64,000 nt of DNA from Yuukianura sp. NJ FZ-2021 (lineage: Eukaryota): NCBI GenBank assembly GCA_046563655.1, contig CM102286.1, forward strand, positions 8,928,001 to 8,992,000. Reading direction: 5' to 3'. Shown here piece after piece: positions 9,702 through 64,000 of the stretch. Numbering within the stretch: the first letter of the stretch is position 1; each line of letters starts with the position of its first letter. Under the pieces are notes generated by a model, which had not been told where the DNA came from, ran no database searches, and worked only from the letters and a program-made list of their open reading frames with translations. Made by a program: the position numbers and the translations under genes.

Positions 9702-10852
9702 AGGCCGTTTCACACCGGAGCTCTGGATGGATTTTCCGTCCACTGGACGTCCAGTCCATGGATAAAATTTTGACTCTTTCACACCAGATTTTGGGGAAAG
9801 CGAGGGGTGGATTTTTTTTCCATGGATGGATTTTCCGTCCATTGGAAAAAAATTCCATGGATGCGGTGTGAACAGAGATTTTCCATTGAATTTCTGAAAA
9901 GCAAGTAAATGACCGGCGCGGAATTGTAATCCTTTTGCGAGTGACATGGCCCGTGACACATGAAAAAATTACCGTCAAAGTGGGTCAAAGGTCAAATTTC
10001 GAAATAATTGCTTGATTTTTCTAGAACTTGGCTCGTATGTGTCATATGACCTTTGACGCAATGCTGAAAAAGGTGTCATGATGTTTGACCTTTGACGTGA
10101 CCTTTGACCTTTGACATGATCAGTTCCTTCCATTTGAGTATAGTTTTATCAACCTGAGTAGTTTTGCCTAACGGAACCTAACCTATAGTCTCAGGGTGTG
10201 GTCGCAGGGTCGAGAGTCATGAGTCACTGGACAGAAGTTGATCCCATCATTGACCTAAGCAAGTTTGGTAGAGGTGAATCTTTCGGCTGGCGCGCAAGTC
10301 ACAAAGTTTTTCTAAATTGGACACTTCAGCTTTACTATAAACAACTAGATTAATAGCATGGCGCCATGCTTAACTTTACAACTCGTCCCCGTCGTGCAGT
10401 TTACCATCGTTATCCATTATAACTTTGATTAATTGTAAACAATAATTAACTTTCTACTAAAATCAAAGCGAAGTTGTAGTTGTGTATTGTTATTAGAAAA
10501 ACAAGTGCTGTTTGATTTGTTTTGTCGTTTTAAACTTTCGATCAGCGCGCCCGTGAGAAAATTGGGGCAAGGTAAGACAAATGTTAACTCAATCCAGACC
10601 AAAAGTTCACCTGAATGAACTTTTGGTCTGGATCGTTTCTCCCATCTCTCAGCATTACAAGAAAATCCAGTGGAAAAAATTTCCATGGATGGATTTTTTC
10701 GGTGTGAAAGAACGGAAATCCAGTCCATGGAAAAAAAATCCACCCCAACTTTCTCTGGATGATCCATCCAGACGGATTAAATCTGGTGTGAAAGACTGGA
10801 TTGCCGTCCAGTGGAAGGAAAATCCATCCAGTGGTCCGGTGTGAAACGGCCT
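9702..10852. mobile_element. PIF/Harbinger-type MITE
   Basis: Perfect TIRs AGGCCGTTTCACACCGGA / TCCGGTGTGAAACGGCCT with 3-bp TAA TSD (9699-9701, 10853-10855). Reiterated subterminal CCATGGATGGATTTT and TTTCACACC motifs. Confidence 0.92.
9899..10372. mobile_element. Possible Helentron-like insert nested in the Harbinger MITE
   Basis: TGACCTTTGAC repeats (10046-10115), a terminal palindrome AGCATGGCGCCATGCT (~10354-10369), and composition distinct from the MITE arms. Boundaries approximate. Confidence 0.45.
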
Positions 10853-12314
10853 TAACGGGTTCTTATTTTCGCCTCACAATATCCTTACCGAAATCTGGAT
10901 AACGGTCCACCAGATGACAGGAGATTTCCACGCCCAGGCCCAGGACAGGCCTACGACGATACGAGGTAGGCACATCCAAATTAAAAATTCCTGAATCAAG
11001 ATTCTTCAACTAACTTGCAAACTGCAGTATTTTAGAGATATTATTGGCATCATGACATTAACTGACGATGAACGTTTTTACTCATCAAACATACTTTTTT
11101 GGAGAAAAAAAGTTAACTTGAACTTTCACCACAATTGTCGGTTTTGACTCTACACCTAGTTGACCTTGGATTTACTCTGTGAAATTTTTGAAAAGTTGTA
11201 TTTGTTGGTTGAATTTTGTTTAGTCGTACTTTCATTGTTGGTTCCCACACCCGGAAAGTGATAACATAAAAATATTTCATTGTTACTCCGAGGATACACG
11301 TTTCACCGGTTTGATTTCAGGGTGATTTTTTTATGAACCGATTTTGACCCGTGCGCAGAAGCCAACGGGGAACCGTTTCCCACGAAACTATCCAAAGTGT
11401 AGTCACTTCCACGGTTTTACTTCAGAGAGCATGGAACCCCCAACGAATGCATTTCTATTTTACCACTGTTCTATAAGTACCATGTTTTCCCCTTCCAAGC
11501 CGGCAGTTTACTTTCCATCGTCTCTCTGCAAACGTTCAGTCCTACTCCAACAATATCCGAAACTACTCAGGATCAAATCCAGACCCAAAGTTGCTAATAA
11601 GCTGCTGACTTTTCTCCTCGACCCCATCAGTCCATTTCCAATCAGTTGGGGATTCTGTTCTGAACGTTATTGTGCATTTTCTAAACGCACTGAAACGTAA
11701 TCCCTCGTAGTTCCCCTCCACTTCCGAAGGGAGATCACATCCCCCATCAGTGTTTCTGCACAAAAGACTCTAATCAAAACCACTTCCTAACAAAAATTTG
11801 AACACGGAAAAAACATTTGAACAGCGTTGATCCAGTATATCCGTCTGGTTTCCTTATTGTTCCAATCCAGAATATCCAATTATTGTGGGTTCTTCTAGCG
11901 CGTGTTCAATATTTTTAAGGGGATGAATTTAAGCATGCCCCAGTTTGAACAATTTGAAATCGCAACGTTGAAATGTCTGTAAACATTAAAGATGTTTATT
12001 AAAATGGAGGACAACGAGTTGGAAAGCAAGCGCCTTCGAAAGATGCATAAGTTTAATAGCTAAACTTAAGTTGAAATGGTGATGGTTATGTGAGCCACTG
12101 CAGGATTATTTAGTCGTTAAAGAGCTGGCGGTGCTGTCATCGAGACAAGGACTATGGAAATTGACAAGCACAACTGCACAAGGAGACATCGCAGAATTCC
12201 ATTACGGTCGACAGTGACATTTGGGTTTTAGCTGTCATCGCTTCCCGCCTACGAATACTACTGAAGGTGACTTCATCTTAAGATTGTCATCATTTTGAAT
12301 CACAACACAAAGCA

Positions 12315-39300: not shown

Positions 39301-42300
39301 CTTCAAACTTTTTTTTACGCCTAAAACTCCTAACCCAAACTTTATTACACAACTCGCTTCGTCTCTCACCCACGAAACTTTGTTTCATTATAAAACCATA
39401 CAATTTCAGACTAAAAATTCAAAAAATTTAATATAATTTTGTGCTTGACTCTAGGGGAAAAATTTCAAGTTTTTTCCAACTATTATCAAACAAAAATTTA
39501 TTTTTCCACTTTCTCCTTGGGGTCATAAACTGTGAAATTCTTGAATTCGTTTTTTTTTTTGCCAATCGTAATAGACAGATTTCTTTTTTTTAATTCTCAC
39601 ACTGACGAGCTACATATCCACTTTTAAAATTTTAAATTATGTATAACTTAGCTTGATATTTAAAAAAATTATTTTCACAATGTGATACTTTATACTTTCT
39701 CAATTACGACAGAAAATGCCGCCTTTTTTTGTGGATTCAGAAACAAAACCAGTATGATAAATTAGACATTGTTCGGTAGAGATAAATTTTTAGCGGCTTT
39801 TTACCGCAAAGTCAGTCTGCAAGCATAAAAAAATTTATATTCTCTAAAATACTAAACGGTTTTTTTCTAGCGCTACTCTAATACAACATGAAATTGTACA
39901 ATTTTAACAAAGAAATTTGTGTTGAACCTATAAAAAATTGGTTTCTGTATACAGAAATAACTGGTGCACTGAGCTAGTTTTGTATTGTTTGTTACTATCG
40001 ATTAAGTTTGTTTCCAAACCTTAAATTAATTATTGGGAGGTCCCAACCAATCCAAAACTATAACCCAAATTGCTTGGAAAGTTTTTATCAGCACAAAAAG
40101 GTAACCTTCAGCAAAGGAGGTGCCTCTTAAATTTGCAAAATAGCAAACGTTGCAAACAACAAACAACATCCAGACAAAATTGGAAAAAACAGAAAAAGCT
40201 GGGACAAAGGATTAATTGAATTGGGGTTTACTGAATAGCAAAACATTTGACATTTCTTTTGTTGTTGGGAAATTAATAACACTGCCAGCAGTAGTACTCC
40301 AGTTGACGAGAGATTAAAATATTTTTGTTTCTGTTGAATTTATTAAAAGCTGAAGACATTGTCCCTTGTTTCCCTTAAAGTCCATTAATCAATTCTTTTA
40401 ACGCTTCACTGTGACACTGACTTACGACTGAAAGAGGCAGGGTTAGAGCTCTAAGGCCCCTTCCCCTTGAGTAAACACTGGACACGAACTGTGCAACAAA
40501 GCTTACAAGAGACACTTTATCATGGCATCCTAAATAATAATGTTTACCGCTTCACGGCACTTCATAAAAATGAACCATCAAAACCCCCACCAAAAATATT
40601 AAGGACAGTCGAATGTAGGGTTCTGCTATGCGTGACCCGATTCTGAGAACTCTTCAACACAATTACACTTAACATTATTTTTGCACAATTAAACTCGAGC
40701 TTACCATAAGCTTAGGAACACTGTTGTAAACAAGTAGACAAAGACATGTTCGTCAAAGACAATGTGGAACGCTCTGCGTGGGCAAATTTTCATGATTGCA
40801 TGTGTGATAAGTGCTAATGTTAGAAATTAAGGTTAATTTTAATTATTGATTTTAAGTTAAAAACCAGCGCCAGATTTGTTTTGTTATTTTTGAGAAAGAG
40901 GCGCTCGATTTGAAATGGCGTTTTTTCCTGGCGTGTCTTTGAATTGGAATTTTGTGTGTTATGATTTTTAGTAGGATTGTGGATATTAAGAAAAGAAAAA
41001 GGAATTTGGTCAATTGGTTAAATTTTCAGAATAAGTAAAATGAATGTTTCAAAATCAATTCTCGTGACTGCTTCGGTCCAACGAACGAAAATCACTTCTT
41101 CTCGGGGAGAGATTAAGGATTTAACAAATTGGTGACCCTGGCCGGACCAGAAGCGGGTATTCACGGAATCGATCGAAACTGACGGACACTTGGAAATCAC
41201 AGGCTCATCGATTACATTGAAGACTCGACCAACTGTTTACGTCGAGGTCTGTCCTCACCGGACGAGGACTGAAATCGGTGAGAATCGTTCCATTTGTCGA
41301 TTGCTGACTGATTAGTAACAGGTGGTATTTATTTACCTTAAGGATGACCAAGGAAATGGACAAACTGAAGAAACTCAGAGGGGCCGAACGGGGTATTGTG
41401 ACGAGGATGATCGGGACTTTGGAGAATGACTTGAAGGTTAACCCACTTCCAAAACTGAAAATCGAATCAAACCTCCGTGTTTTGAACGTTCACGTTGAAA
41501 AACTGGAAGAACTGGACGAATCGTACAAGTCAGCACTCCTGGATTTGGATTCAACTACAGATGAGGTTTTTGAAACTGAAACAGAATCAATCCTGGAGTA
41601 CACTACGAAGGTAGCGATGATCAGAGTGCAGGTTGAAGCAGTACTGGAGGTACCAACTGTGCCCGTTGCTCCTGGCGTTACCCAAGGTTCGAGCCGAAGT
41701 GGAAGCAGTGGCAGTTTGGGTGAAATGAACAATGTGAAGTTACCGAAGGCTGAATTAAAGAAGTATTCAGGCGAACTTTCAGAGTGGCTTGACTGGTGGT
41801 CATCGTTTGAGAAAATTGACCGTGACACAAGGCTCAACGATGCAGACAAGTTCCACTACCTTGACCAGTGTATGACGAAAGGATCGAAAGCGGCTAAACT
41901 GATTTTGCGGTATCCACACACGGCAGAAAATTACAAGAAGGCGGTGGATGCACTGAAGAAACGGTTTGGTGATCCTGATCTACTGTCGCTGATGTATGTG
42001 CAGGACTTGATCTCCATGGTGACTAACAAGAATAAGGACAGATTTGATCTTGCTTCTCACTTTGATACGGTGGAGACAAAAATTCAACATCTGGAATCAC
42101 TGGGACTTACGGTACGGGAGATGACTGTGTTTCTTTACCCCATGGTAGTAGCCAGTCTCCCAGAAGAAACAGTGATCGCCTGGCAACGTAGTACCAACTA
42201 TGGAAAAGATTGTAGTGAAGAAGACCCACCACAGACAAGGCTCGACTTTTTGCGGATGTTTCTACAAGAGGAAGTGGAACATGCTGAAAGTCGGGTGGTA

Positions 42301-45300
42301 CTTTGTACCAAGAAAACAGACACTGGAAGACGACAGACCCGGGGAAGGGAGCAGAGTCAAGAAGATGACATCCCTACAGCAGCCGGTCTTTTTAGTGGTT
42401 CTAATTCTTGTGTCTTTTGTGATAAAGGTCACGCCAGTCAAGACTGTTTCAAGGCACAGAAGATGACTGACGTGGAACGGAAGGACAAGTTGAAAGAAAA
42501 GGGAGCGTGTTGGGCCTGTCTTCGTACCGGTCACTTGCGGGCAAAGTGTACGATCAGCGTCAGATGCTCTAAATGTGGGAAACGTCACTACAAACTGATG
42601 TGTAATGGAGACGAGAAGAAGAAGCCAGTACCAAAGACTGAGTCGACCTCCACTACACAAACCAATCTGAACTGCACGAACGAAGTTCTACTTAAGACTT
42701 TGATGGTGAAACTGGTGAATCCAGTAAATCAGAAAACGAAGAAGGTGAGAGTATTTATTGATGATGGTTCCCAACGTTCCTATATCCTGTCAGGTACTGC
42801 AAAGGAGTTGGAGTTTGAACCAGTCTCGTCTCTCACCATGAACCATCAAGTATTCGGAGGTGGAACTATTCGTGATGTGAAACACGATACGTTTACCGTA
42901 ACACTCAAGAACATGGACGGTTCATTCTCTACTCAGTTCAACGTCATCGACCAAGATCAAATTTGCGGAATTTTGCCTAGAGCAACACAGGGGTCTTGGA
43001 AGGCGGAGTTGAAGAAGAGAGGAATTTCTGTCAATGATGTGGATTCGTCACACCCTGCCAAAGTTGAAGTGCTCCTCGGAGCGGATGTGGTGGGAAGTCT
43101 ACTTACTGGGAACATAGTGAACGTGAAGAGTGGACTTACCGCAATTGAGACTCAGTTTGGTTGGTGTTTAATGGGGCAATCTCATAATGATTTTTCTTTT
43201 TGTAATCAGGCGACTGTGATGACTGTTTTGTCAATGGGAGTTTCCAGTGCATCAGTGACTGAACTTTGGAACTTGGATACATTGGGAATTCGTGATCCAA
43301 TTGAAATTCAGACGAAAGAAGAACGTGATAAGTTGACATACGACCACTTCATAGAAACTGTACAACGTGATGACAGCGGCCGTTACTCAATTTGTCTCCC
43401 GTGGATTGACAGGGAACTGAAGATTCCGACAAACAGGCTGGTGGCAGAGAAGAGACTAGAGACTACCACCAGGAAATTGAAGTCGCTTGGGAAGCTGGAC
43501 GATTATGGTGCGATCTTCAAAATGTGGGAGAAAGACGGAATCATCTCTCAAATTCGTGATGTTGAAGACGGGGGGAAGGGGAAGATTCATTACTTGCCTC
43601 ATCGTGCGGTGTTAAAATTGGAAAGTAGCACCACACCCATACGACCCGTCTTCGATGCTTCCTGTAAGGTTGGAAGGGCCCCGTCACTGAACGAGTGTTT
43701 GGAAAAAGGGCCCAACTTGTTAGAAGTCATTCCGGCGATCCTTCTGCGATTCCGGATGAAGAACGTTGGTGTTATCTCCGACATCCGTAAAGCCTTCCTT
43801 CAAATTCAAGTTCAGGAGCAAGATCGAGATTCTCTTCGTTTCCTATGGTGGGAAGATCCAGGACAGGAGAAATTGACTGTTTTTCGTCACAATCGTGTCG
43901 TATTTGGAGTGAACAGTTCTCCATTTTTGTTAAGTGCAGTGATTAATTTTCATTTGTCTCAACAGGAGTCACAGCATTTGGACATTGTGAGAGAATTACA
44001 GAAGTCACTCTATGTCGACAATTGTGTTGTGTCTTTGGACTCAGTGGAGTGTTACAAAAAGTTCAAAGCAGAAGCCACAAAGCTTTTGGCAACAGCAAAA
44101 ATGGACTTGACCCAATGGGAATCTACGGGTGATGATGGAGTGACAAGTGTTCTTGGCCTAAAGTGGGACAAGAGAGCAGACACTTTGTTTTGTGCTCCGT
44201 TGAAAGACGAATGTTTATTGCAAGTTACTAAAAGAATTGTTCTTTCTAGAATTCAACAGGTCTTTGATCCACTGGGATTCTTGGCACCTGTCATGATTTT
44301 GCCGAAGCTCCTACTACAAAGGTCATGGATTGAAAATCGAAAGTGGGAGGACGAGGTGAATGAAGAGGCAAAAACAGAATTTTGCGCATGGTGGGAAGAA
44401 TTGTTGCCAGTTCTCGAAACATTCAGACTCCCGAGGAAGTGCACTGGATCAGCCGACGACGAAGGAGAATTTCAACTCCATGTCTTTTCTGACGCAAGTC
44501 AACACGCTTACGCGGCTGTCGTGTATCTTCGGGTGGAAACGACCAACGGGGTGGAAGTTCGTCTAATTCAAGCGAAGTCGCGAGTTGTTCCATTGAAGAA
44601 GACGACTATTCCTCGTTTGGAACTACTCTCATGCGCCATTGCTGCTCGTCTTGCCAATTCTGTGAAGGGGGCGTTGGACATGGAGAAGATTCCCATCCGC
44701 TACTGGACAGACTCGACTACAGCGCTACAATGGATTAGGCGTAGTGACGAGTGGGGGACATTTGTGGGAAATCGCGTAAGAGAAATTGTAAGCCTAACTG
44801 AAGTTTCGACTTGGCATCACGTTCCAGGCCTACTGAACCCGGCAGATCTACCATCCAGAGGAGTCACTCCGAAGAAGTTCAAGGAGATGAAATTCTGGTG
44901 GGAAGGGCCGTCGTGGCTGAAATTGAAAGAAAGTGAATGGCCAAGTGCAGAACCACATGCTGATGAAGATGAAGTTGGACGGGAGAAGAGAAGATCGACC
45001 GTTACACTGGCAGTCAACTCTTCAGTACCAGTGTGGTATACTCCTAAAAATTCCTATTTCGGAAATTTACGTGTTTTCGCCTATGCTCTCAGGTTCGTCG
45101 ACAAGTTGTGGAAAAGAAGTTCTGAAAATAGTCGAGTACCGTCAGCCTGGGAGACTCAGAGGTCCGAGCAAGAAATATGGAAACTTGTTCAATCAGAATC
45201 GTTCTCAAGTGATGTCAGACTGATTGACGGAATCAAAGTTGAGCGGGATGAACTGGGGTTAGTACGAGTACGGACGAAGATTTTAAATCGACAAGACACA

Positions 45301-47590
45301 GAAGATTTTCGTTGCCCGATCCTCGTGCCGAGCTCTCATCCACTCACAGAACAATTGATTATGGACTGGCACAAGATCAACTGTCATGCTGGAGTGCAGT
45401 TCGTTTTGTGTTCTCTTCGCGAAAAGTTCTGGATTTTGAAAGGACGACAAACTGTGAAGAAAGTGCTAAAGAAGTGTGTTAAGTGTCAACGTTTCACTTC
45501 CAAGAACTTTGATGTACCGTCTGCACCTCTACCAGAAAATCGAGTCAAGGACACATGCGCATTTAGTGTTACAGGAGTGGATTTGGCCGGTCCGTTACTT
45601 CTGAAGGCCAAGAGTAAGGTCTGGATCGTCATCTTCACATGCGCTGTGTATCGTGCAGTTCACTTGGAACTGGTGGACAGTTTGTCGACAAATGATTTTG
45701 TTCTTGCCTTCATCCGTTTTTGCAAAAGGAAGACCCGGCCTAGTACAGTCTACAGTGACAACGGTACTAATTTTCATGGTGCCGTTAATCTCTTCAAGCA
45801 AATTGACTGGGCGGAGGTGGAGCAAAGGACAAAGGAACAGCAAATTCAGTGGATCTTCAATCCACCGGCAGCACCTTGGTGGGGTGGATGGTGGGAGCGA
45901 CTTATTCGGTCGCTCAAGGACCTACTCAAGAGGATGCTCGGGTTCCGGAAGTTGAACAAAGTTGAGCTCGAGACCTGCTTGTGTGAAGTAGAGGACACCA
46001 TCAACCACAGGCCGCTGACTTTCGTAACGGAAGATGTACAAGATTTGATCCCCCTAACACCAGCCATGTTTATTCACAATCTTCCGGTAAGTGAGGTTCC
46101 AGAATCTCAAATTGTAACCGGTTCTGATTTCAACAGGAAGAGCAAGAGGCTGGACAAAATGTTGGAGGAGTTACGACAACGTTTTCGTAAGGAGTACTTG
46201 GGACTTCTTGTGCAACGAGGAAAACAGAAAACCAGAGAATTTGTCGTTGGTGACTGCGTCCTGATTGGCAGAGAGGACGTTAAGCGGATCCTTTGGCCAA
46301 TGGGGATAATTGAAGAATTGATCAGTGGAAAAGATGGGGTTCATCGGGTGGCCAAATTGCGGACGAAGAATGGGATTTTGGTTCGCCCACTACAGAGACT
46401 TTTTCCGTTGGAATTTGACCGAGACTACCCGACTGGTGAACTTTCCCTTGACTTGGAACTGGAAATGGCTGCTCAAGACTCGGATGAAGAGGAAGACGTC
46501 GAAACAGAAGATCCGGAGCAACCAGTGATAACGACTACTCGAAGTGGACGCACTGTTCGTAAGCCCGTAAGGTACTGCGACTACTGATAGTTTTAAGCTT
46601 TTTTGAGTTCGTCCTAAATACTAGTTTTAAGTTTTCAGTTCGTCCTAAATACTAGTTTTAAGTTTTCAGTTCATCCTAAATACTAGTTTTAAGTTTTCAG
46701 TTCATCCTAAATACTAGTTTTAAGATTTTCTGATCGACCTAAATTTAATTTTAAGTTTAAAGTTAACGTTTGGGTTTGTTGTTTTCTTTGACTTCCCAGC
46801 CAAAGAAGGTGGGAATGTGTTAGAAATTAAGGTTAATTTTAATTATTGATTTTAAGTTAAAAACCAGCGCCAGATTTGTTTTGTTATTTTTGAGAAAGAG
46901 GCGCTCGATTTGAAATGGCGTTTTTTCCTGGCGTGTCTTTGAATTGGAATTTTGTGTGTTATGATTTTTAGTAGGATTGTGGATATTAAGAAAAGAAAAA
47001 GGAATTTGGTCAATTGGTTAAATTTTCAGAATAAGTAAAATGAATGTTTCAAAATCAATTCTCGTGACTGCTTCGGTCCAACGAACGAAAATCACTTCTT
47101 CTCGGGGAGAGATTAAGGATTTAACAGCTAATGAATAAGTTATTCAATCCCAATTTGGAGTACCGCGTTGCTCATATTATAGTTGACCTTTTGGCCTGCC
47201 GAGCCTTCTGAGAATATTACTGGTTAGTCCATTTCTAAAAGTATGTTTTTTACTTCCCAGAGTCCGGATTCGCCAAACTGCTACTTGGCAGTACTTAGCA
47301 TCCAGAATCTGTCTTCGGAAGACGGAGGAGAGTACATGTTTGTAGCCCGAAATAGCAAAGGGATTCATGAGGGTACGATACTGCTAAATATCACGCAAGC
47401 CAGTTACTCCGTGTCCAGTATTTCGACGGCCACTTCGACGTCGTCCAGAGCTTACAGTGGTCGCTTCTCCTCCTACTCCCGCATCATTACGGCCCATTGC
47501 CTCACGCTCATCCTCCTGTTCATCATCAGTCCACTGGCCATGGGATGTCCAGCACAGCAGCATCCCCAGGCATCAGCATCGCCGTTATGA
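12315..47590 (+). CDS. Five-Ig-domain cell-surface protein (Kirre/NEPH-like ectodomain, short hydrophobic C-terminus), 10 exons
   Basis: GT-AG exons: 12315-12375 (signal peptide MRTKRRTMVFAGLHWMILIL, continued by CHIVLCS), 18819-19325 (LKLKC..ITW..DNGIWQC), 20056-20458 (IQCVVEGGNPPPKITW..VVC), 25261-25383, 28962-29052, 29371-29429, 30433-30516, 30813-31007, 32581-32765, 47261-47590. All phases are consistent except exon 3, which has one extra base at CCCC 20301-20304. Confidence 0.88.
40818..41126 (+). repeat. 5' LTR
   Basis: Direct repeat of 46818-47126 at an offset of exactly 6000 bp. No mismatch seen. Confidence 0.97.
41130..41143 (+). promoter_or_regulatory. Primer-binding site, probably tRNA-Trp
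   Basis: TGGTGACCC lies 3 nt after the LTR and matches the start of the known tRNA-Trp PBS (TGGTGACCCCG...). The same motif occurs in the first BEL element. Confidence 0.75.
41344..46587 (+). CDS. BEL/Pao Gag-Pol polyprotein (gag, zinc knuckles, aspartic protease, RT, RNase H, integrase), 1747 aa
   Basis: Three CX2CX3-4HX4C knuckles, protease FIDDGSQRSY, RT motifs HYLPH / RPVFDAS / SDIRKAFLQI / YVDN, RNase H HVFSDAS...TIPRLELL, integrase GVDLAGP / YSDNGTNF / PWWGGWWERLIR. Confidence 0.98.
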   Translation: MTKEMDKLKKLRGAERGIVTRMIGTLENDLKVNPLPKLKIESNLRVLNVHVEKLEELDESYKSALLDLDSTTDEVFETETESILEYTTKVAMIRVQVEAVLEVPTVPVAPGVTQGSSRSGSSGSLGEMNNVKLPKAELKKYSGELSEWLDWWSSFEKIDRDTRLNDADKFHYLDQCMTKGSKAAKLILRYPHTAENYKKAVDALKKRFGDPDLLSLMYVQDLISMVTNKNKDRFDLASHFDTVETKIQHLESLGLTVREMTVFLYPMVVASLPEETVIAWQRSTNYGKDCSEEDPPQTRLDFLRMFLQEEVEHAESRVVLCTKKTDTGRRQTRGREQSQEDDIPTAAGLFSGSNSCVFCDKGHASQDCFKAQKMTDVERKDKLKEKGACWACLRTGHLRAKCTISVRCSKCGKRHYKLMCNGDEKKKPVPKTESTSTTQTNLNCTNEVLLKTLMVKLVNPVNQKTKKVRVFIDDGSQRSYILSGTAKELEFEPVSSLTMNHQVFGGGTIRDVKHDTFTVTLKNMDGSFSTQFNVIDQDQICGILPRATQGSWKAELKKRGISVNDVDSSHPAKVEVLLGADVVGSLLTGNIVNVKSGLTAIETQFGWCLMGQSHNDFSFCNQATVMTVLSMGVSSASVTELWNLDTLGIRDPIEIQTKEERDKLTYDHFIETVQRDDSGRYSICLPWIDRELKIPTNRLVAEKRLETTTRKLKSLGKLDDYGAIFKMWEKDGIISQIRDVEDGGKGKIHYLPHRAVLKLESSTTPIRPVFDASCKVGRAPSLNECLEKGPNLLEVIPAILLRFRMKNVGVISDIRKAFLQIQVQEQDRDSLRFLWWEDPGQEKLTVFRHNRVVFGVNSSPFLLSAVINFHLSQQESQHLDIVRELQKSLYVDNCVVSLDSVECYKKFKAEATKLLATAKMDLTQWESTGDDGVTSVLGLKWDKRADTLFCAPLKDECLLQVTKRIVLSRIQQVFDPLGFLAPVMILPKLLLQRSWIENRKWEDEVNEEAKTEFCAWWEELLPVLETFRLPRKCTGSADDEGEFQLHVFSDASQHAYAAVVYLRVETTNGVEVRLIQAKSRVVPLKKTTIPRLELLSCAIAARLANSVKGALDMEKIPIRYWTDSTTALQWIRRSDEWGTFVGNRVREIVSLTEVSTWHHVPGLLNPADLPSRGVTPKKFKEMKFWWEGPSWLKLKESEWPSAEPHADEDEVGREKRRSTVTLAVNSSVPVWYTPKNSYFGNLRVFAYALRFVDKLWKRSSENSRVPSAWETQRSEQEIWKLVQSESFSSDVRLIDGIKVERDELGLVRVRTKILNRQDTEDFRCPILVPSSHPLTEQLIMDWHKINCHAGVQFVLCSLREKFWILKGRQTVKKVLKKCVKCQRFTSKNFDVPSAPLPENRVKDTCAFSVTGVDLAGPLLLKAKSKVWIVIFTCAVYRAVHLELVDSLSTNDFVLAFIRFCKRKTRPSTVYSDNGTNFHGAVNLFKQIDWAEVEQRTKEQQIQWIFNPPAAPWWGGWWERLIRSLKDLLKRMLGFRKLNKVELETCLCEVEDTINHRPLTFVTEDVQDLIPLTPAMFIHNLPVSEVPESQIVTGSDFNRKSKRLDKMLEELRQRFRKEYLGLLVQRGKQKTREFVVGDCVLIGREDVKRILWPMGIIEELISGKDGVHRVAKLRTKNGILVRPLQRLFPLEFDRDYPTGELSLDLELEMAAQDSDEEEDVETEDPEQPVITTTRSGRTVRKPVRYCDY
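46590..46755 (+). repeat. 31-bp tandem repeat in the retrotransposon 3' UTR
   Basis: About 4-5 copies of TTTCAGTTC(G/A)TCCTAAATACTAGTTTTAAGT immediately after the stop codon. Confidence 0.9.
46818..47126 (+). repeat. 3' LTR
   Basis: Direct repeat of 40818-41126, preceded by the PPT and followed by the TSD. Confidence 0.97.
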
Positions 47591-52554: not shown

Positions 52555-54825
52555 AACGTATGGATTTCTGTCCAAAATGAAATTGAGCGACTTCCTTTTC
52601 CACACACTGGAACCACACTCTAATGCAGGGCTGAACCTATTTCTTCGAAATCCAAAAGTATAATACTCAAGGAACGGAAAATAAAGAGCGAGTCGTTTCC
52701 CTCATTTTGAAATTGAATATTGAATAAGTGTGTACAAAGCGTCGCAGCAGTTTTCATTTTTTTTTTTTGTAAAAACTTTTTTTTAGTGGATTTCGTTTGT
52801 GTTGCATTTGGAGGATGAAGTGCCGAAGAAAGAGATTGAAACAAGTTATGTGTTTTCTTGGTCTTTTGTTTTATATCGAAAGTTGACTATTTTCATAGGG
52901 AAGGGAGGAGGTCCTATGGTGATGTGGATGAAGTCCTCCTTTGCGACAGATCAGACAGATCTGCAAGAATAGGGAAAAGAAAGTGAGTTTGAGGAGATGA
53001 GATTGGAGACTTAACTTTTTGTTTCCCGGGTTTTCCTTGCGTCAATTCAACTAAACTGTGGCAAAGTAGCGCCCGGAAAGTGTGCGTCGTTCCATTTGGG
53101 ATCTCCTAAAGAACACGGAAAAGCGAAGAATAGGATAAGCGTCGTTCCGTCGTAAAATTTTACTGTGGAATTGAATATGGAAGAAAAGTGGAGACTACAA
53201 AATCCTCCGAGGCATCGGGATTCGTTAGGCCCATCTCAGTACTCGTCGTAGCTTTCGTCGAAATCAAATCCAAAAGCTTTCTAGTAAACCAAGAGGATTC
53301 GACTTCGCAAAACCTTTCATGCAAAATTTCTTTTTCCAAATTGCAAAAAGAGAAGAAAGTGAAGCCAAGTTTTTGAACAAAATGTTAGGTTTATAAGGTT
53401 CTTCTGACCCGGCTGATCAAGACATAACAGTAAATTTCTCTTGGAAATTGGGGTTTCGACTCCATAGCTATTCAGGACTCAAACTTCAAATTTATTGAAG
53501 AAACTTTAAGATTAACAATAACTTTTTGTTGTGCTCATGCTAATATAACCAAAGGTTAGAAATTTTGAGTTAACAAACTTTTTTCAAAATTGCATTACTA
53601 GTATAGTTATATCTAAAAAGGCATCGGCGAACAACACAAAATTTTCAAATTCGACGCTGCCCTTTCATTGTTTGCACTAACTCATACACAAACATTTTTA
53701 ATTTTATCTCGTAAAATGTCATGCTGTGTTAAATTCAATTGAACAAGTGTGAAAATTTTTCGAACAAGGCTGTAGTCTTACGCATAACAAAAACTCGTTA
53801 ACGTATAATGAAATTTCAATATGCAGAATATAATATACCTAACATAATATGCATAAGATGTGTGTATGCATGTATTTTTAAATTGGAATATATATTTTAA
53901 ACTAGGCACAAAACAAACCCGTTTACTCTTTTGGTAAAACAACACCAAACTTTAAGGTTAAGCAGATCCTTGAGAGCTCCGGGCCGTATAAACCCTACAA
54001 ATAAAATCACTGAAAATCTAATGAATTATTTCAACAAAATAATAATTTGAACAATAAATTATAAAATACAGTATAAAAACTGGTTATGTCATTTGTAAAA
54101 TTAACGATTTCGACTATCTGTTTGATTCAAGATAAAAACTACCATGCAAAAGCTTATAAATATCAATACAATATAATTAATTAAAAGATAGCTAATTGAA
54201 CGTCCGTGAAAGTCCTTATTAACACTACGTCAAGACTTGTTGGAAATAAGATTGATTTCAAAGTTCAAACTAAACAATTTCTCAAGAAACAAGATTCAAA
54301 ATCCAATTCACTTCCTTTGACTTTTGCCTTATTCCGAGAACCAGAGGAGCTGGACAGAAGCTCATTAATTTTCATCAAGACAAATGAAAGGGCTCCCGTT
54401 TGAGACTTGGTTCAAATTCCGAATTTCTCGGGGCTAATCGAGATGCCACTCTGCTTCCAATCCATTTGTTCATTCCACTTCCAACCTAAGTTAAGTTAAG
54501 TTGCCCCTAAGGAGTTGACCCAATGTCAAGCTAGGGGTTTCTTAGCACATCCCCAGACACAAATTCAACGCTAGGGAATATTGAATGCAAAGGGAAGACT
54601 TCCCGTTGTGATCAATTTTCTTAAAACTTGACACTGACAACAAGCAAATTCCACAAAATTCATTATAGTCATAAGAACGAGTAGATGGAAAATTTAAAAA
54701 ATTGAAACAGATAAGACAAGAACATAAAAGTGTTCAACCTCAACCAAAAATTAAACACTAACTCATGTTAAGATACAATGGTAACAATTGTGTGGTAACA
54801 TTTTGGCACAATGTTTAAAAATACA

Positions 54826-55153
54826 AGTAGTTATCATCGCATGACTACTAGTAAAAACAAACTTGACCTGTAGGTCAAAATATGTAAACATGACCTACTT
54901 TTCGAAAGTCAACTTTTCAGGGTGCATGAGAAAATGATCTCATTCTTTCTCTCAGTGGAAAAGAGTATACGAGGAAGAGTTCACTTCCACCCACTCTTCA
55001 CTTGTGAGGAAACTTTTGAGGGGAGGGTAGGGTGTAATTTTTTAACACATAAGAGCAACAAAAAACGAAACTGAGTTCAGTTATTCATAAACCATGAACC
55101 ATTACACTTGTTGGGAGGAGAAAAATGTCTGGTTTCAGTTCTAGTAAATTTTA
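54826..55153 (+). repeat. Left terminal inverted repeat (~328 bp)
   Basis: Reverse complement of 63429-63763 apart from a few substitutions and small indels. Confidence 0.95.
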
Positions 55154-56007
55154 CTCTTGTGACACATGCCAATTGCAAAATTTAGGTGCACAACGATTCT
55201 TACCTCACGTCCAAACAACCCATCTGGACATTGAAATACCTGGTAAGCTTAAAACAATTGATACAGTAATACGCATTGTTTTTAAAATTCTTGTTACAAT
55301 AGGTGAATTGTTAGAAGACATTCAAACTGAGCATTATGATACCTCGGGAGCATTCGCTGGAAGACAGTGCGGATGCGAAACATGTAACTTGAGGGGGCTT
55401 TCTGAACGAGATTTTATAAGTCACATTCAACAACTGCATCCAAGTATTCAATTACCAGGTAATCTCAAATTAATAATTCGAAAGCAGAGCATGTTTTGAT
55501 TGTTGTTGGTTGTTTTTAGGTCTCATTGCTGGTACAAGTAGTTCACGGTCGGCATTTGTACCCCTTCAGTACCAGCCGACGGAAGGTTAGAATGTCATGA
55601 TGATGATTTTTTTTGTAAAAATAATCTTCTCTTCCAATTTAGAACGAGATGCTGTTGCGTTGGAATTACAAGGAATTGGAATTGAGGAATTACAAGAGAC
55701 GATTTTGTGCTCAGTGTGGAATAAATTTTGAGTATCCTGGGCAGTTGGATGAGCACCAGTACAATACTCACCCAGAACTGTATCCTTCTGTTCAAAACCA
55801 ACAGAGTGGAAGTGCTCCAGAGTATGAAGTACATTTCGATGAATTGACTGCTTTTGGCGGTACCACTCGCGAGTATACCGCAACGTTTGATGAAGATGTG
55901 TTTGTGGATGTGGCTGGTCGCTGGTGTCTTTGCTCACTGTTCAGCAACTTTGCGGGAATTGATGAGAAGGATTCATGGGGAAATCGCGTCGTACTTGGTC
56001 AGCAGTG
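55125..56007 (+). pseudogene. Spliced gene with three C2H2 zinc fingers, 3'-truncated by the tandem array
   Basis: Exons 55125-55242, 55303-55458, 55520-55585 and 55643 onward, separated by ~60-nt GT-AG introns. Three CX2CX12HX4H motifs (CDTC..H..H, CETC..H..H, CAQC..H..H). With the best donor, exon 4 is out of frame before finger 3. A 7-nt insertion is likely at 55913-55919. Confidence 0.7.
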
Positions 56008-59000
56008 TTTGTTTTGTGACGTCAAAATTGGTGGGTTTGGAGTCAAAGTAAATCAATATGTTCCAAAGAGAACTCCGATGTTTCTGTATGGTGGAACGCA
56101 AATTACGCCCAAGGAATGTAAACACTTAAATACAACAGGTAACATAAAACTTCTAAGTTTTGATGTATGAAATAAAACGAACAGAAATGTGGAATCACAA
56201 CGACTGGTCTAATTGCCTTTTCATTCAATCGAACTTTCACATTTGCGATTCTGCTACCGTCGTTGAAAAAAGTTTACTCCACAACTAATTTTGTATACAT
56301 TGAGTGGTTACTTCACCCAACGTGTTACGACTAATAGGCCGTATTTTTTAGTGAGGACACAATTTTGTGCTTAATAGAAGCATTAGTACCGTTGGCCCCT
56401 AACAAGTAAAGAAAATCTTAAAAATGCAATTTGGTGGGATTGCACTTTTGTCAAAACATATTTCTGTTTCGTGTTGTTATGATGTAATAAACTTTAGCAA
56501 GTAGGAATATGAGCGGGGAAATTTTACTTACATACACTTATAACCACTTATAACTTTGTTTCTCCGGAGTCACATTCTTGCTTACTAAGTTACATGATCA
56601 AAACACAAAACATCATTTTATTTTTGAGAAAAGTGATATTTGTATTACTTCAAAACGACCCCAGCAACTCAATTTAACAGTTCATGTTTTTTTTATTTAT
56701 TTCAGTATGACCCAAAAATAGGTTGTAACGTACTTCGAGGGCATAAGTATGATTCCGAAACAAAAGACCTCATTTCACAATTATCTGCTTCGGGATATCG
56801 CCCCATACCTGGAATAAAGCGAAGAAATGGAGTAATGGTAGAGATGGCGGACGACTTTTCCAGGCTGTGCTATTTGTTTTGTGACGTCAAAATTGGTGGG
56901 TTTGGAGTCAAAGTAAATCAATATGTTCCAAAGAGAACTCCGATGTTTCTGTATGGTGGAACGCAAATTACGCCCAAGGAATGTAAACACTTAAATACAA
57001 CAGGTAACATAAAACTTCTAAGTTTTGATGTATGAAATAAAACGAACAGAAATGTGGAATCACAACGACTGATCTAACTGCGTTTTCATTCTATCGAACT
57101 TTCTCATTAGCGATTCTGCTACCGTCGTTGAAAAAAGTTTACTCCACAACTAATTTTGTATACATTGAGTGGTTACTTCACCCAACGTGTTACGACTAAT
57201 AGGCCGTATTTTTTAGTGAGGACACAATTCTGTGCTTAATAGAAGCATTAGTGCCGTTGACCCCTAACAAGTAAAGAAAATCTTAAAAATGCAATTTGGT
57301 GGGATTGCACTTTTGTCAAAACATATTTCTGTTTCGTGTTGTTATGATGTAATAAACTTTAGCAAGTAGGAATATGAGCGGGGAAATTTTACTTACATAC
57401 ACTTATAACCACTTATAACTTTGTTTCTCCGGAGTCACATTCTTGCTTACTAAGTTACATGATCAAAACACAAAACATCATTTTATTTTTGAGAAAAGTG
57501 ATATTTGTATTACTTCAAAACGACCCCAGCAACTCAATTTAACAGTTCATGTTTTTTTTATTTATTTCAGTATGACCCAAAAATAGGTTGTAACGTACTT
57601 CGAGGGCATAAGTATGATTCCGAAACAAAAGGCCTCATTTCACAATTATCTGCTTCGGGATATCGCCCCATACCTGGAATAAAGCGAAGAAATGGAGTAA
57701 TGGTAGAGATGGCGGACGACTTTTCCAGGCTGTGCTATTTGTTTTGTGACGTCAAAATTGGTGGGTTTGGAGTCAAAGTAAATCAATATGTTCCAAAGAG
57801 AACTCCGATGTTTCTGTATGGTGGAACGCAAATTACGCCCAAGGAATGTAAACACTTAAATACAACAGGTAACATAAAACTTCTAAGTTTTGATGTATGA
57901 AATAAAACGAACAGAAATGTGGAATCACAACGACTGATCTAACTGCGTTTTCATTCTATCGAACTTTCTCATTAGCGATTCTGCTACCGTCGTTGAAAAA
58001 AGTTTACTCCACAACTAATTTTGTATACATTGAGTGGTTACTTCACCCAACGTGTTACGACTAATAGGCCGTATTTTTAGTGAGGACACAATTCTGTGCT
58101 TAATAGAAGCATTAGTGCCGTTGACCCCTAACAAGTAAAGAAAATCTTAAAAATGCAATTTGGTGGGATTGCACTTTTGTCAAAACATATTTCTGTTTCG
58201 TGTTGTTATGATGTAATAAACTTTAGCAAGTAGGAATATGAGCGGGGAAATTTTACTTACATACACTTATAACCACTTATAACTTTGTTTCTCCGGAGTC
58301 ACATTCTTGCTTACTAAGTTACATGATCAAAACACAAAACATCATTTTATTTTTGAGAAAAGTGATATTTGTATTACTTCAAAACGACCCCAGCAACTCA
58401 ATTTAACAGTTCATGTTTTTTTTATTTATTTCAGTATGACCCAAAAATAGGTTGTAACGTACTTCGAGGGCATAAGTATGATTCCGAAACAAAAGGCCTC
58501 ATTTCACAATTATCTGCTTCGGGATATCGCCCCATACCTGGAATAAAGCGAAGAAATGGAGTAATGGTAGAGATGGCGGACGACTTTTCCAGGCTGTGCT
58601 ATTTGTTTTGTGACGTCAAAATTGGTGGGTTTGGAGTCAAAGTAAATCAATATGTTCCAAAGAGAACTCCGATGTTTCTGTATGGTGGAACGCAAATTAC
58701 GCCCAAGGAATGTAAACACTTAAATACAACAGGTAACATAAAACTTCTAAGTTTTGATGTATGAAATAAAACGAACAGAAATGTGGAATCACAACGACTG
58801 ATCTAACTGCGTTTTCATTCTATCGAACTTTCTCATTAGCGATTCTGCTACCGTCGTTGAAAAAAGTTTACTCCACAACTAATTTTGTATACATTGAGTG
58901 GTTACTTCACCCAACGTGTTACGACTAATAGGCCGTATTTTTAGTGAGGACACAATTCTGTGCTTAATAGAAGCATTAGTGCCGTTGACCCCTAACAAGT

Positions 59001-62000
59001 AAAGAAAATCTTAAAAATGCAATTTGGTGGGATTGCACTTTTGTCAAAACATATTTCTGTTTCGTGTTGTTATGATGTAATAAACTTTAGCAAGTAGGAA
59101 TATGAGCGGGGAAATTTTACTTACATACACTTATAACCACTTATAACTTTGTTTCTCCGGAGTCACATTCTTGCTTACTAAGTTACATGATCAAAACACA
59201 AAACATCATTTTATTTTTGAGAAAAGTGATATTTGTATTACTTCAAAACGACCCCAGCAACTCAATTTAACAGTTCATGTTTTTTTTATTTATTTCAGTA
59301 TGACCCAAAAATAGGTTGTAACGTACTTCGAGGGCATAAGTATGATTCCGAAACAAAAGACCTCATTTCACAATTATCTGCTTCGGGATATCGCCCCATA
59401 CCTGGAATAAAGCGAAGAAATGGAGTAATGGTAGAGATGGCGGACGACTTTTCCAGGCTGTGCTATTTGTTTTGTGACGTCTAAATTGGTGGGTTTGGAG
59501 TCAAAGTAAATCAATATGTTCCAAAGAGAACTCCGATGTTTCTGTATGGTGGAACGCAAATTACGCCCAAGGAATGTAAACACTTAAATACAACAGGTAA
59601 CATAAAACTTCTAAGTTTTGATGTATGAAATAAAACGAACAGAAATGTGGAATCACAACGACTGATCTAACTGCGTTTTCATTCTATCGAACTTTCTCAT
59701 TAGCGATTCTGCTACCGTCGTTGAAAAAGTTTACTCCACAACTAATTTTGTATACATTGAGTGGTTACTTCACCCAACGTGTTACGACTAATAGGCCGTA
59801 TTTTTAGTGAGGACACAATTCTGTGCTTAATAGAAGCATTAGTGCCGTTGACCCCTAACAAGTAAAGAAAATCTTAAAAATGCAATTTGGTGGGATTGCA
59901 CTTTTGTCAAAACATATTTCTGTTTCGTGTTGTTATGATGTAATAAACTTTAGCAAGTAGGAATATGAGCGGGGAAATTTTACTTACATACACTTATAAC
60001 CACTTATAACTTTGTTTCTCCGGAGTCACATTCTTGCTTACTAAGTTACATGATCAAAACACAAAACATCATTTTATTTTTGAGAAAAGTGATATTTGTA
60101 TTACTTCAAAACGACCCCAGCAACTCAATTTAACAGTTCATGTTTTTTTTATTTATTTCAGTATGACCCAAAAATAGGTTGTAACGTACTTCGAGGGCAT
60201 AAGTATGATTCCGAAACAAAAGGCCTCATTTCACAATTATCTGCTTCGGGATATCGCCCCATACCTGGAATAAAGCGAAGAAATGGAGTAATGGTAGAGA
60301 TGGCGGACGACTTTTCCAGGCTGTGCTATTTGTTTTGTGACGTCAAAATTGGTGGGTTTGGAGTCAAAGTAAATCAATATGTTCCAAAGAGAACTCCGAT
60401 GTTTCTGTATGGTGGAACGCAAATTACGCCCAAGGAATGTAAACACTTAAATACAACAGGTAACATAAAACTTCTAAGTTTTGATGTATGAAATAAAACG
60501 AACAGAAATGTGGAATCACAACGACTGATCTAACTGCGTTTTCATTCTATCGAACTTTCTCATTAGCGATTCTGCTACCGTCGTTGAAAAAAGTTTACTC
60601 CACAACTAATTTTGTATACATTGAGTGGTTACTTCACCCAACGTGTTACGACTAATAGGCCGTATTTTTAGTGAGGACACAATTCTGTGCTTAATAGAAG
60701 CATTAGTGCCGTTGACCCCTAACAAGTAAAGAAAATCTTAAAAATGCAATTTGGTGGGATTGCACTTTTGTCAAAACATATTTCTGTTTCGTGTTGTTAT
60801 GATGTAATAAACTTTAGCAAGTAGGAATATGAGCGGGGAAATTTTACTTACATACACTTATAACCACTTATAACTTTGTTTCTCCGGAGTCACATTCTTG
60901 CTTACTAAGTTACATGATCAAAACACAAAACATCATTTTATTTTTGAGAAAAGTGATATTTGTATTACTTCAAAACGACCCCAGCAACTCAATTTAACAG
61001 TTCATGTTTTTTTTATTTATTTCAGTATGACCCAAAAATAGGTTGTAACGTACTTCGAGGGCATAAGTATGACTCCGAAACAAAAGACCTCATTTCACAA
61101 TTATCTGCTTCGGGATATCGCCCCATACCTGGAATAAAGCGAAGAAATGGAGTAATGGTAGAGATGGCGGACGACTTTTCCAGGCTGTGCTATTTGTTTT
61201 GTGACGTCAAAATTGGTGGGTTTGGAGTCAAAGTAAATCAATATGTTCCAAAGAGAACTCCGATGTTTCTGTATGGTGGAACGCAAATTACGCCCAAGGA
61301 ATGTAAACACTTAAATACAACAGGTAACATAAAACTTCTAAGTTTTGATGTATGAAATAAAACGAACAGAAATGTGGAATCACAACGACTGGTCTAATTG
61401 CCTTTTCATTCAATCGAACTTTCACATTTGCGATTCTGCTACCGTCGTTGAAAAAGTTTACTCCACAACTAATTTTGTATACATTGAGTGGTTACTTCAC
61501 CCAACGTGTTACGACTAATAGGCCGTATTTTTTAGTGAGGACACAATTTTGTGCTTAATAGAAGCATTAGTACCGTTGGCCCCTAACAAGTAAAGAAAAT
61601 CTTAAAAATGCAATTTGGTGGGATTGCACTTTTGTCAAAACATATTTCTGTTTCGTGTTGTTATGATGTAATAAACTTTAGCAAGTAGGAATATGAGCGG
61701 GGAAATTTTACTTACATACACTTATAACCACTTATAACTTTGTTTCTCCGGAGTCACATTCTTGCTTACTAAGTTACATGATCAAAACACAAAACATCAT
61801 TTTATTTTTGAGAAAAGTGATATTTGTATTACTTCAAAACGACCCCAGCAACTCAATTTAACAGTTCATGTTTTTTTTATTTATTTCAGTATGACCCAAA
61901 AATAGGTTGTAACGTACTTCGAGGGCATAAGTATGATTCCGAAACAAAAGACCTCATTTCACAATTATCTGCTTCGGGATATCGCCCCATACCTGGAATA

Positions 62001-62534
62001 AAGCGAAGAAATGGAGTAATGGTAGAGATGGCGGACGACTTTTCCAGGCTGTGCTATTTGTTTTGTGACGTCAAAATTGGTGGGTTTGGAGTCAAAGTAA
62101 ATCAATATGTTCCAAAGAGAACTCCGATGTTTCTGTATGGTGGAACGCAAATTACGCCCAAGGAAAGTAAACACTTAAATACAACAGGTAACATAAAACT
62201 TCTAAGTTTTGATGTATGAAATAAAACGAACAGAAATGTGGAATCACAACGACTGGTCTAACTGCGTTTTCATTCTATCGAACTTTCTCATTAGCGATTC
62301 TGCTACCGTCGTTGAAAAAAGTTTACTCCACAACTAATTTTGTATACATTGAGTGGTTACTTCACCCAACGTGTTACGACTAATAGGCCGTATTTTTTAG
62401 TGAGGACACAATTCTGTGCTTAATAGAAGCATTAGTGCCGTTGGCCCCTAACAAGTAAAGAAAATCTTAAAAATGCAATTTGGTGGGATTGCACTTTTGT
62501 CAAAACATATTTCTGTTTCGTGTTGTTATGATGT
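56008..62534 (+). repeat. Tandem array of ~864-bp units, ~7.5 copies
   Basis: Near-identical ORFs recur at 56640, 57505, 58369, 59233, 60096, 60960 and 61824 (spacing 863-865). The array starts mid-unit at 56008 and ends at 62534. Confidence 0.98.
56706..57035 (+). CDS. Putative terminal exon (109 aa, unknown function), repeated in every array unit
   Basis: Pyrimidine-rich acceptor TTTTTTTATTTATTTCAG, then YDPKIGCNVLRGHK...LLSFDV, TGA and an immediately adjacent AATAAA. Other copies at 57571-57900, 58435-58764, 59299 (premature stop at 59484), 60162-60491, 61026-61355, 61890-62219. Confidence 0.5.
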   Translation, partial: YDPKIGCNVLRGHKYDSETKDLISQLSASGYRPIPGIKRRNGVMVEMADDFSRLCYLFCDVKIGGFGVKVNQYVPKRTPMFLYGGTQITPKECKHLNTTGNIKLLSFDV

Positions 62535-62937
62535 TGGGGGTTAGGGATGTTTGGGGAGTTGGGAGATTTGGGGAAGGAGTAGAAGACGTGGAGTTTTATG
62601 ATTGGCTATGTTCTGTGCATGGTTCAACTTCCGACGACCTCAACGACATGTCGACCTAACTTTGAGGTCAGCTCTATTCCGTACGTTTTGCGTCGGCTGT
62701 CTACATTCTACTTGAGGACAACTGGAGGAGCTGCGGAACAGTTGGCTACACTCAAGACGACTCTGGAGACTTGCCGCAGCGACATTGAAACCTTCAACCA
62801 GGAGCTGGAACATGTCCCACATGACTAACTTTCCCTTTCTTTTCACTTGGTAAAATAAAATTTGTTAGCAATTGCTTTAAAACAAACGAGAGAATTTGGA
62901 TTTTGTGAGATCTTATTTGTTTTTTTTTTGTTTAAAT

Positions 62938-63280
62938 TTATTTGAATGGAGTACAACATTGATTAAGGTTAGATGAGGAAGGAAGAGAATTTTTGGAGAG
63001 TCTCCTAAGCTTTTTTCTTACAAATTGTCTAACTAGCCTATCATTTCTTTTGGAGTTGGAGTTGAAGTTGCAGTAGATGGACATGAGACAGCAAGTATGA
63101 TAAAGTTTGTAGAAAAAATAGATTGCATATTCTCCACACACTTGAGAGTTTGGACTTTGAAGAGTCCGGATGTTTTCCACAATTGAAGTCTGGTGCCGAG
63201 ATGCAAAGTTGGAAAAGGCCTTGTCGTAAAACTCTACTCCCAACCAACCCATACGAGTCGATGAATTTGAGAGGAGCCTT
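62938..63280 (-). pseudogene. Adenain-like (peptidase C5 type) cysteine protease remnant, typical of Polintons
   Basis: Removing a 4-nt duplication (CAAC x2, 63241-63248) restores KFIDSYGLGVEFY...ENIRTLQSPNSQVCGEYAIYFF, i.e. the FxDSYG, LQ and CG motifs. The upstream His motif is missing. The stop overlaps AATAAA. Confidence 0.8.
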
Positions 63281-63282
63281 GG

Positions 63283-63435
63283 AATTTTAGGTTAGGTTAG
63301 GTTAGCTAACCTAGGTTAGCTAACTTAAACTTAACCTAGCTAGCTTAACTAGCTTAACTAGCTTAGCTACCTAGCTAGCTAACTTAACCTAGGTTAGCTT
63401 AGGTCAGCTAACCTAACCTTACCTAACCTAAAATT
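63283..63435. repeat. Head-to-head (TTAGG)n...(CCTAA)n low-complexity palindrome
   Basis: Starts AATTTTAGGTTAGGTTAGGTTAGC and ends GCTAACCTAACCTTACCTAACCTAAAATT, with a TAGC/TAAC-rich middle. Confidence 0.85.
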
Positions 63436-63763
63436 TACTAGAACTTAAGCCAGACAATTTTCTCCTCCCAACAAGTGTAATGGTTCCAGGTTTATGAACA
63501 ACTGAACTCAGTTTCGTTTTTTGTTGCTCTTATGTGTTATAATAAAAATTACACCCTACCCTCCCCTCAAAAGTTTCCTCACAAGTGAAGAGTGGGTGGA
63601 AGTGAACTCTTCCTCGTATACTCTTCTCCACTGAGAGAAAGAATGAGATCATCATTTTCTCATGCACCCTGAAAAGTTGACTTTCGAAAAGTAGGTCATG
63701 TTTACATATCTTGACCTACAGGTCAAGTTTGTTTTTACTAGTAGTCATGCGATGATAACTACT
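63429..63763 (-). repeat. Right terminal inverted repeat (~335 bp)
   Basis: Reverse complement of 54826-55153. Confidence 0.95.
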
Positions 63764-64000
63764 TACAGTAAAACTTTTAGCTTCTGAAAATCGAAACTTC
63801 ACAAAATTTCAGAAGACACACGATACTTTGAAAACAAGATGAGTTAGAAGTGTTTGGTTGTAGAATCGGACTCTTCGAAAAAATCAGGTTGATTTCCTTT
63901 TTCTTTTTTTGTCGAATTAGTTGGAGGGATAAAAGTTGGATTTGGAATCTGGAACTTTGGAATTTTGAAAAGAAAGTCTGGAAGGAAAGAATAAGTTTAA

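Follow-up and report, generated by a model that had tools for sequence, protein, structure and literature searches.

Autonomous animal Polintons or Mavericks (adintoviruses; PMC8097293, PMC8502044) are the closest described relatives of the locus analyzed here, an 8.9-kb element at positions 54826-63763 of a 64,000-nt stretch of DNA from Yuukianura sp. NJ FZ-2021. We refer to this whole stretch as the window, coordinates are positions within it, and what we say of the literature rests on the accessible portions of the papers cited. Autonomous Polintons resemble our element in their long (AGT)2//(ACT)2 arms and inward-pointing, adenain-type protease, and they have capsid and rve integrase genes beside the protease, as the lineage of our protease does. 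The (AGT)2//(ACT)2 motif is the commonest at Maverick ends, arms average 402 bp, the target duplication in vertebrate Mavericks is 6 bp, and in their integrase-capsid module, which points inward, the protease closes the list of genes (PMC8097293); for Polintons in general, duplications of 5-8 bp are given (10.1101/2023.08.22.554363). Our element differs in having no polymerase, integrase, ATPase or capsid gene, a halved protease, a 4-bp duplication, an internal tandem array and spliceosomal introns in its left gene.

With defective or polB-lacking Polintons, the element shares its retained arms, the loss of core genes, a presumed movement in trans and its occurrence at several sites. Most vertebrate Maverick copies are degraded (PMC8097293), butterfly Polintons that lack polB stay mobile (10.1101/2025.02.07.637071), remnants of Polinton terminal inverted repeats are known in C. 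elegans (PMC11414722), and the accessible text on the anole reports that no non-autonomous copies were seen (PMC3014272). As far as these portions of the literature go, the defective Polintons described either retain the majority of their core genes or have entire transposons as cargo, and none has an internal head-to-tail array of an accessory gene. Our literature search, for which most subscription papers were out of reach, returned no report of a tandem array inside a mini-Polinton and none of SET cargo in an animal Polinton, a gene that the supplementary animal maps of PMC8502044 may already show.

We conclude that the element is most likely a non-autonomous derivative of Polinton/Maverick origin. 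The origin is well supported because relatives of its protease adjoin double-jelly-roll capsid and integrase genes, and the element is not an autonomous Polinton because the core genes are absent. Degraded, non-autonomous Polintons are common, which makes the find a mostly ordinary one; the original 2006 Polinton description reportedly included non-autonomous elements. What the locus would add is a clear case of a tandem repeat of variable copy number that arose within the remnant of an endogenous virus. It also cautions that an array of this kind may be mistaken for a stuffer or for the replacement of a core. Of interest to Polinton specialists, if confirmed, are the SET-like gene in an animal Polinton, the 4-bp duplication and the arm-confined A-to-G editing described below.

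Arms, protease and missing core genes

The frame of the element consists of the following features.

54822-54825, + strand: left copy of the target duplication, TACA (4 bp)
54826-55153, + strand: left terminal inverted repeat, starting with (AGT)2; its inner end carries the start codon of the zinc-finger gene
55125-56007, + strand: start of a spliced zinc-finger gene, with its ATG at 55125, inside the left arm
56008-62534, + strand: array of 864-bp units in tandem, 7.55 copies, with outer and inner subtypes
62535-62828, + strand: small Polinton-type gene in convergent orientation to the protease, with a break at 62652-62658, a site at which other copies have extra length
62938-63286, - strand: adenain-type protease, 3' two-thirds (residues ~62-175 of ~175; homology 63286-62944)
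63287-63426, no strand: TTAGG/CCTAA-rich palindromic hairpin of 140 bp, between the protease break and the inner end of the right arm
63429-63763, - strand: right terminal inverted repeat, ending with (ACT)2
63764-63767, + strand: right copy of the target duplication, TACA (4 bp)

The two arms, 328 and 335 bp long, agree at 320 of 328 aligned columns, with 8 substitutions and 2 indels. Their lengths fall within the 100-1500 bp set for Polintons and Mavericks, and the ends, AGTAGT...ACTACT, carry one of the two motifs set for these elements, (AGT)2//(ACT)2 or (AG)3//(CT)3. Because six of the eight substitutions cluster within the inner ~75 bp, arm divergence is a weak clock. The longest perfect duplication of the flanks is the 4-bp TACA, with shifted ends allowed and a single site examined. 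The same arms occur at several insertion sites: among the matches listed, the arm end at 63763-63764 is joined to other flanks about once in sequencing run X2 and about three times in run X5. Related arms that diverge inward were also seen among loose contig ends. The outermost 24 bases of each arm (54826-54849 and 63740-63763) are also palindromic, AGTAGT...ACTACT, and fold into a 9-pair hairpin, which might play a part in priming or help to explain the unusual 4-bp duplication.

The identity of the protease comes through its relatives. An Atlas comparison placed the fragment in clan CE (score 0.96), and its features point to clan CE/C48. In a full HMMER search, E values of 0.001 or lower were reached by 91 relatives, the best at 5e-18; most have 165-185 residues and are matched from about residue 76. 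When 20 of the 91 were searched against Pfam, 14 matched Peptidase_C5 at E<=0.05, with 3 of the 20 above the cut-off; C48 was matched by 3 of the 20, each more weakly than C5. A profile built from 19 relatives and the fragment ranked adenovirus protease first (E 9e-7), with SENP8 at 0.003. Ulp1/SUMO proteases of family C48 occur in DNA transposons of the MULE, CACTA, Ginger and Zisupton groups, and we considered a transposon of this kind; it does not fit, since C5 beats C48 in the relatives and adenain outranks SENP8. The remnant itself has a frame break near 63244. The part with the catalytic histidine is nowhere in the window, where none of 1280 open reading frames (ORFs) is a protease 5' part, and the fragment alone had no match in viral contigs or PDB sequences and none among 3 candidates in a word-indexed protein search.

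Gene order around the relatives shows what is missing from the element. Of 118 confirmed metagenome loci with this protease, 80 were examined; in 44 of these the gene immediately upstream is of capsid type, and only 65 of the 80 have at least 400 bp of upstream sequence. In one of them (L010) the capsid-type gene has a predicted double jelly-roll fold (predicted local distance difference test, pLDDT, 83), with an iridovirus capsid as best match (E 1e-15), and an rve integrase is next in order there and in L005, the two loci whose ORFs were tested (2/2). The viral-contig loci L001, L002, L083-L085 and L237-L239 were distant and gave uninformative comparisons. Between the arms of our element we found no pPolB, rve integrase, packaging ATPase or capsid gene, the longest ORF being 175 codons; tblastx of the element against 84 loci gave no match to polymerase, integrase, ATPase or capsid genes, and a scan of 53500-64000 against Rfam gave 0 matches. 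Because the capsid gene sits upstream of the protease in the relatives and in vertebrate Mavericks, the loss of the capsid module probably took place at the hairpin, on the right-arm side of the protease, and not at the array. The original prediction had described terminal inverted repeats of ~330 bp ending in AGTAGT/ACTACT around a C2H2 fragment, a tandem array and a protease remnant, all of which are present, and its adenain-like (peptidase C5) assignment holds through the relatives. Its broader proposal of a Polinton/Maverick derivative is borne out by the adenain family, by capsid and integrase genes beside the protease relatives, and by related arms at other sites.

The small gene next to the protease has a tblastx match in one of the 84 loci (L003, E 5e-7), in the same convergent position after the protease. 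The right interior varies between copies: in runs X1 and X2 some are 483 bases longer at 62652-62658, and a second version of the hairpin occurs in X2 and X5. As RNA the hairpin would fold with -68 kcal/mol, and its TTAGG/CCTAA repeats are telomere-like; no such hairpin was present in the 10 closest metagenome loci checked. It may have come from healing of the telomere type, from slippage by fold-back or from the insertion of a small element. We also considered it as an intron of the protease, which is ruled out: the arm holds no matching coding exon and the window no 5' part.

The left gene and the tandem array

The left gene and the repeat unit contain the following coding features.

55243-55302, 55459-55519 and 55586-55642, + strand: GT-AG introns of the zinc-finger gene (60, 61 and 57 bases), read from sequence
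56024-56249, + strand: putative SET-domain-like coding remnant, in every unit, with an N-terminal motif, a frame break near 56163 and an NH..NC motif
56518-56541, + strand: weak C-terminal-like motif, just inside part b of the unit, in the expected order
56706-56870, + strand: exon-like stretch in part b, with a strong splice acceptor upstream and an in-frame fusion to the next unit's SET-like motif

Translation of the left gene gives three C2H2-like fingers, a frame break near 55700 and then ~90 codons. The fingers (55098-55499) have only sub-threshold matches to Pfam zf-C2H2 (best E 0.001). Some metagenome Polinton polymerases have zinc-finger-like leaders, in unspliced ORFs (L062:3153-4796, L077:3098-4792 and L051:1-5157), and 55643-55960 matches the finger-led polymerase in L077 weakly (phmmer E 0.53; all polymerases compared are distant). 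With tblastx, 54826-56872 had no match in the 84 loci. On balance we lean toward a polymerase leader that was fused to a cargo gene by deletion, and a single zinc-finger/SET cargo gene is a somewhat less probable alternative.

The array makes up 73% of the element. Each unit consists of part a (478 bp) and part b (386 bp), and the array contains 7 full units of 863-865 bp followed by 478 bp. It is entered at the start of part a and left at the end of part a, giving the layout L-(a-b)7-a-R, and the b-to-a join has 11 bases in common with the upstream entry point from L to a. Units 1 and 7 differ by 1 base and units 2-6 by 1-4 bases among themselves, the inner units being 99.5-99.9% identical, and the two groups differ by 10-13 bases. 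The original prediction called the units nearly identical; they are not uniform. The inner units are less diverged than the arms (Fisher p 0.0008). The expansion of the array is thus recent, and the first duplication need not be.

The reading frames of the array are broken, and the unit probably carries a decayed SET-like gene. The lead came from an Atlas comparison of the 175-codon ORF, which scored 0.88 to PR/SET clusters. With a profile of 141 SET domains from 150 bacterial and viral-contig loci, array ORFs ranked at the top of the 1280 ORFs in the window, at E values of only 0.2-0.9. A frameshift-aware alignment over 56024-56249 gave 21.6 bits, a score equalled by 7 of 1019 shuffles. By block, the N-terminal GxG..Y.G motif was reached by 0 of 300 shuffles, the NH (NHS/C) motif by 7/300, the C-terminal ELxxxY motif by 48/300 and the A.RDI block by 131/300; of the three motifs, the first two are significant and the C-terminal one is not. 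Pfam searches of the unit ORFs gave no SET match, a SET family search of one record (G001) was negative (0/1), and a word-indexed protein search with the 175-codon ORF found none among 19 candidates of near length and 205 longer ones. A single-sequence fold of this ORF was uninformative (pLDDT 30), and no relative of the exon-like stretch at 56706-56870 was found. The C-terminal motif falls at its expected place in the series, a little past the start of part b. The original arrangement was probably part a followed by part b.

Annotated SET genes are known from midsize eukaryotic linear double-stranded DNA viruses labeled non-animal (PMC8502044, Fig. 5 legend). The unit resembles viral SET genes and PR/SET zinc-finger proteins in the order of its SET-like motifs and in the zinc fingers in frame upstream; it differs from them in that the published label is non-animal and our match is weak, frame-broken and without close relatives. 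We suggest that the unit is an amplified, retained middle piece of the element: retained cargo, not filler. Tandem repeats and satellites can arise inside transposable elements. Our array is like such satellites in its head-to-tail unit of several hundred bases, its edge subtypes and its variable copy number, and differs in that its unit contains exons, comes from an accessory gene of viral type and apparently occurs at one locus only.

Unit number was compared between samples. The stretch is present in six sequencing runs from three studies, and the contigs of four runs were compared over 61650-64000. The b-to-a join is present in contigs of two samples (X2 and X5). Contig depths in X2, indicative only, were 52.6 for part b, 101.6 for part a, 54.8 for the adjacent unique contig and 68.8 for the flank, which fits a-b-a. 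In X5, one 895-base contig contains a whole unit cycle at a depth of 19.4, against 3.4 in the flank (~5.7x). From these rough depths the unit number would be ~1.5 in sample S1 and ~6 in sample S2, compared with 7.55 in the window. S1 is the best match to the stretch among the samples; because it contains only 65-76% of the sampled words and has alleles, such as those at 61707 and 62425, that the window lacks, it probably represents a different individual from the source of the assembly. Junction contigs of S1 and S2 fit the insertion site of the window, reaching only 24-29 arm bases, below our 31-base rule, and on this evidence array length seems to have changed without moving.

Origin of the element and competing explanations

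We think it likely that the element is a non-autonomous, multiply deleted Polinton/Maverick copy in which a repeat has grown in place. Its arms, its ends and the adenain half show that it derives from a Polinton. To judge from the gene order of the relatives, the hairpin that separates the protease from the right arm would be where the capsid module, directly upstream of the protease, disappeared. The polymerase, ATPase and integrase are absent too, and if the left gene is a polymerase leader, a second deletion would lie near 55920-56000. The remnant of ~3 kb may then have been inserted with the integrase of a relative that recognizes the shared ends; the arms do occur at several sites. Part of the middle region that was kept, containing the decayed accessory gene of SET-like type, would have been duplicated head-to-tail through the 11-bp microhomology to give a-b-a, a step that is shown in part, and unequal crossing-over or conversion may have altered the unit number between lineages. 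The array would accordingly be a copy-number-variable by-product with no role in packaging. The original prediction of an amplification after insertion agrees with this, since the inner units are younger than the arm divergence and unit number seems to depend on the sample. Its description of a core replaced by the array does not, as the missing capsid module belongs on the side of the protease that faces away from the array, at a distance of 0.75 kb from it.

Several results weigh against this reading. The duplication is 4 bp, short of the 5-8 bp (usually 6 bp) of Polintons. Exact patterns of the arms had 0 matches in viral contigs and in metagenome contigs, and no parent joining these arms to core genes was seen among the contigs searched. 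The protease fragment by itself has no Pfam C5 match, and no contig end among those listed runs from the protease into its 5' half. A profile of five distant polymerase N-termini does not retrieve the zinc-finger gene, which has no polymerase-leader match in L237-L239 either, and the SET assignment is moderate only. Divergence between outer and inner units is not different from that of the arms (p 0.19), and therefore the first duplication may predate the insertion. Finally, contig depth is not a copy number, and the kinds of run were guessed.

A different proposal, in line with the original prediction, is a mobile satellite that is copied and packaged by a helper Polinton, its array selected to approach a packageable length. 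Both ends are intact and common to other insertions, multi-unit arrays occur in at least two samples (the window and X5), and mobile polB-lacking Polintons are described in butterflies (10.1101/2025.02.07.637071). This proposal would require more than one locus with an array, and a length toward which arrays tend, and neither was seen. In X2 the depth of part b is close to that of a single copy, though the protease region there has several variants; intact vertebrate Mavericks measure 12.7-24.6 kb (PMC8097293), much more than the 8.9 kb of the element; and the S1 and S2 junction contigs fit the window's own insertion site, so that length seems to have changed without movement. We therefore regard a mobile stuffer as poorly supported and unlikely: the element is far shorter than intact Mavericks, and part b, at about single-copy depth in S1, fits, on rough evidence, a single-locus array there, the very case that the original prediction named as refuting the idea. 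Slightly less probable still is an inflation of the window's copy number by assembly or by amplification before sequencing, with a-b-a or a short array in the animal. The depths in S1, which fit one b and two a, and the near-identity of the inner units are what such an inflation would leave, but it does not sit well with two unit subtypes with private variants or with the whole-unit contig that X5 has independently, and S1 is probably another individual.

The ends could also belong to another family of DNA transposons, one whose insertions leave 4-bp duplications and which took up parts of a Polinton as cargo. The TACA duplication is perfect, and in one X1 contig of low depth (3.7, with 12 differences in 145 bases) the two flanks meet at one TACA; this contig represents either an allele without the insertion or a paralog of the flank. 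In addition, no parent was seen and the protease is cut exactly at the hairpin adjoining the arm. Against this, the end motif is the commonest of Mavericks and the arm length matches theirs (PMC8097293), two adjacent genes of Polinton lineage stand in native order, and the target continues as TACAGT, so that a 6-bp duplication with two bases gone on the left is possible. We give a foreign transposon as low a probability as an inflated array. More far-reaching, and similarly doubtful to the mobile stuffer, is the idea of a mobile family of gene-poor mini-Polintons with a spliced zinc-finger/SET-like chromatin-modifier module in place of capsid or polymerase, 4-bp duplications, expansion of this module as an array varied for dosage or packaging length, and read-through transcription that yields double-stranded RNA paired from the arms and edited by the host.

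Further observations in the samples and the window

Over 61650-64000, X1 shows 17 A>G changes against 1 T>C (binomial p 1.4e-4). All 12 of the listed sites found only in X1 lie in the arm (63437-63763), among them a run of four, and they are absent from X2, which comes from the same sample. The arm contig that carries these sites has left-arm alleles, and the ADAR neighbor preference was not significant among the 12 (p 0.45 and 0.14). The pattern is possibly adenosine-to-inosine editing of arm-paired double-stranded RNA, if X1, guessed to be DNA, is RNA. An RNA run, X6, contains 0.11 of the words of 54826-56900 and 0 contigs on 61650-64000, which is no evidence of expression. A contig in X5 loops back 57 bases inside the arm (63588-63644) at a depth of 433, compared with ~3.3 in the flank, and suggests an arm-derived high-copy tandem repeat or a miniature element elsewhere in that sample.

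Outside the element, the neighboring genes are trypsin-like and immunoglobulin-domain genes, which together with the short introns indicate that the host is an animal. An insertion inside the trypsin-like gene is ruled out, as its last exon ends at 52551. The window also has a long terminal repeat (LTR) retrotransposon at 40818-47117, whose paired, matching LTRs are separated by 6000 bp and whose ORF of 1759 codons is intact, and which from its motifs we take to be of the BEL/Pao type. A small element at 9698-10856, with inverted arms (pairs of 52 and 40 bp), resembles a miniature inverted-repeat transposable element, and at 5419-6400 a minisatellite built on the 7-bp motif GTGACAG forms two blocks, along with a G-rich repeat of 43 bp.

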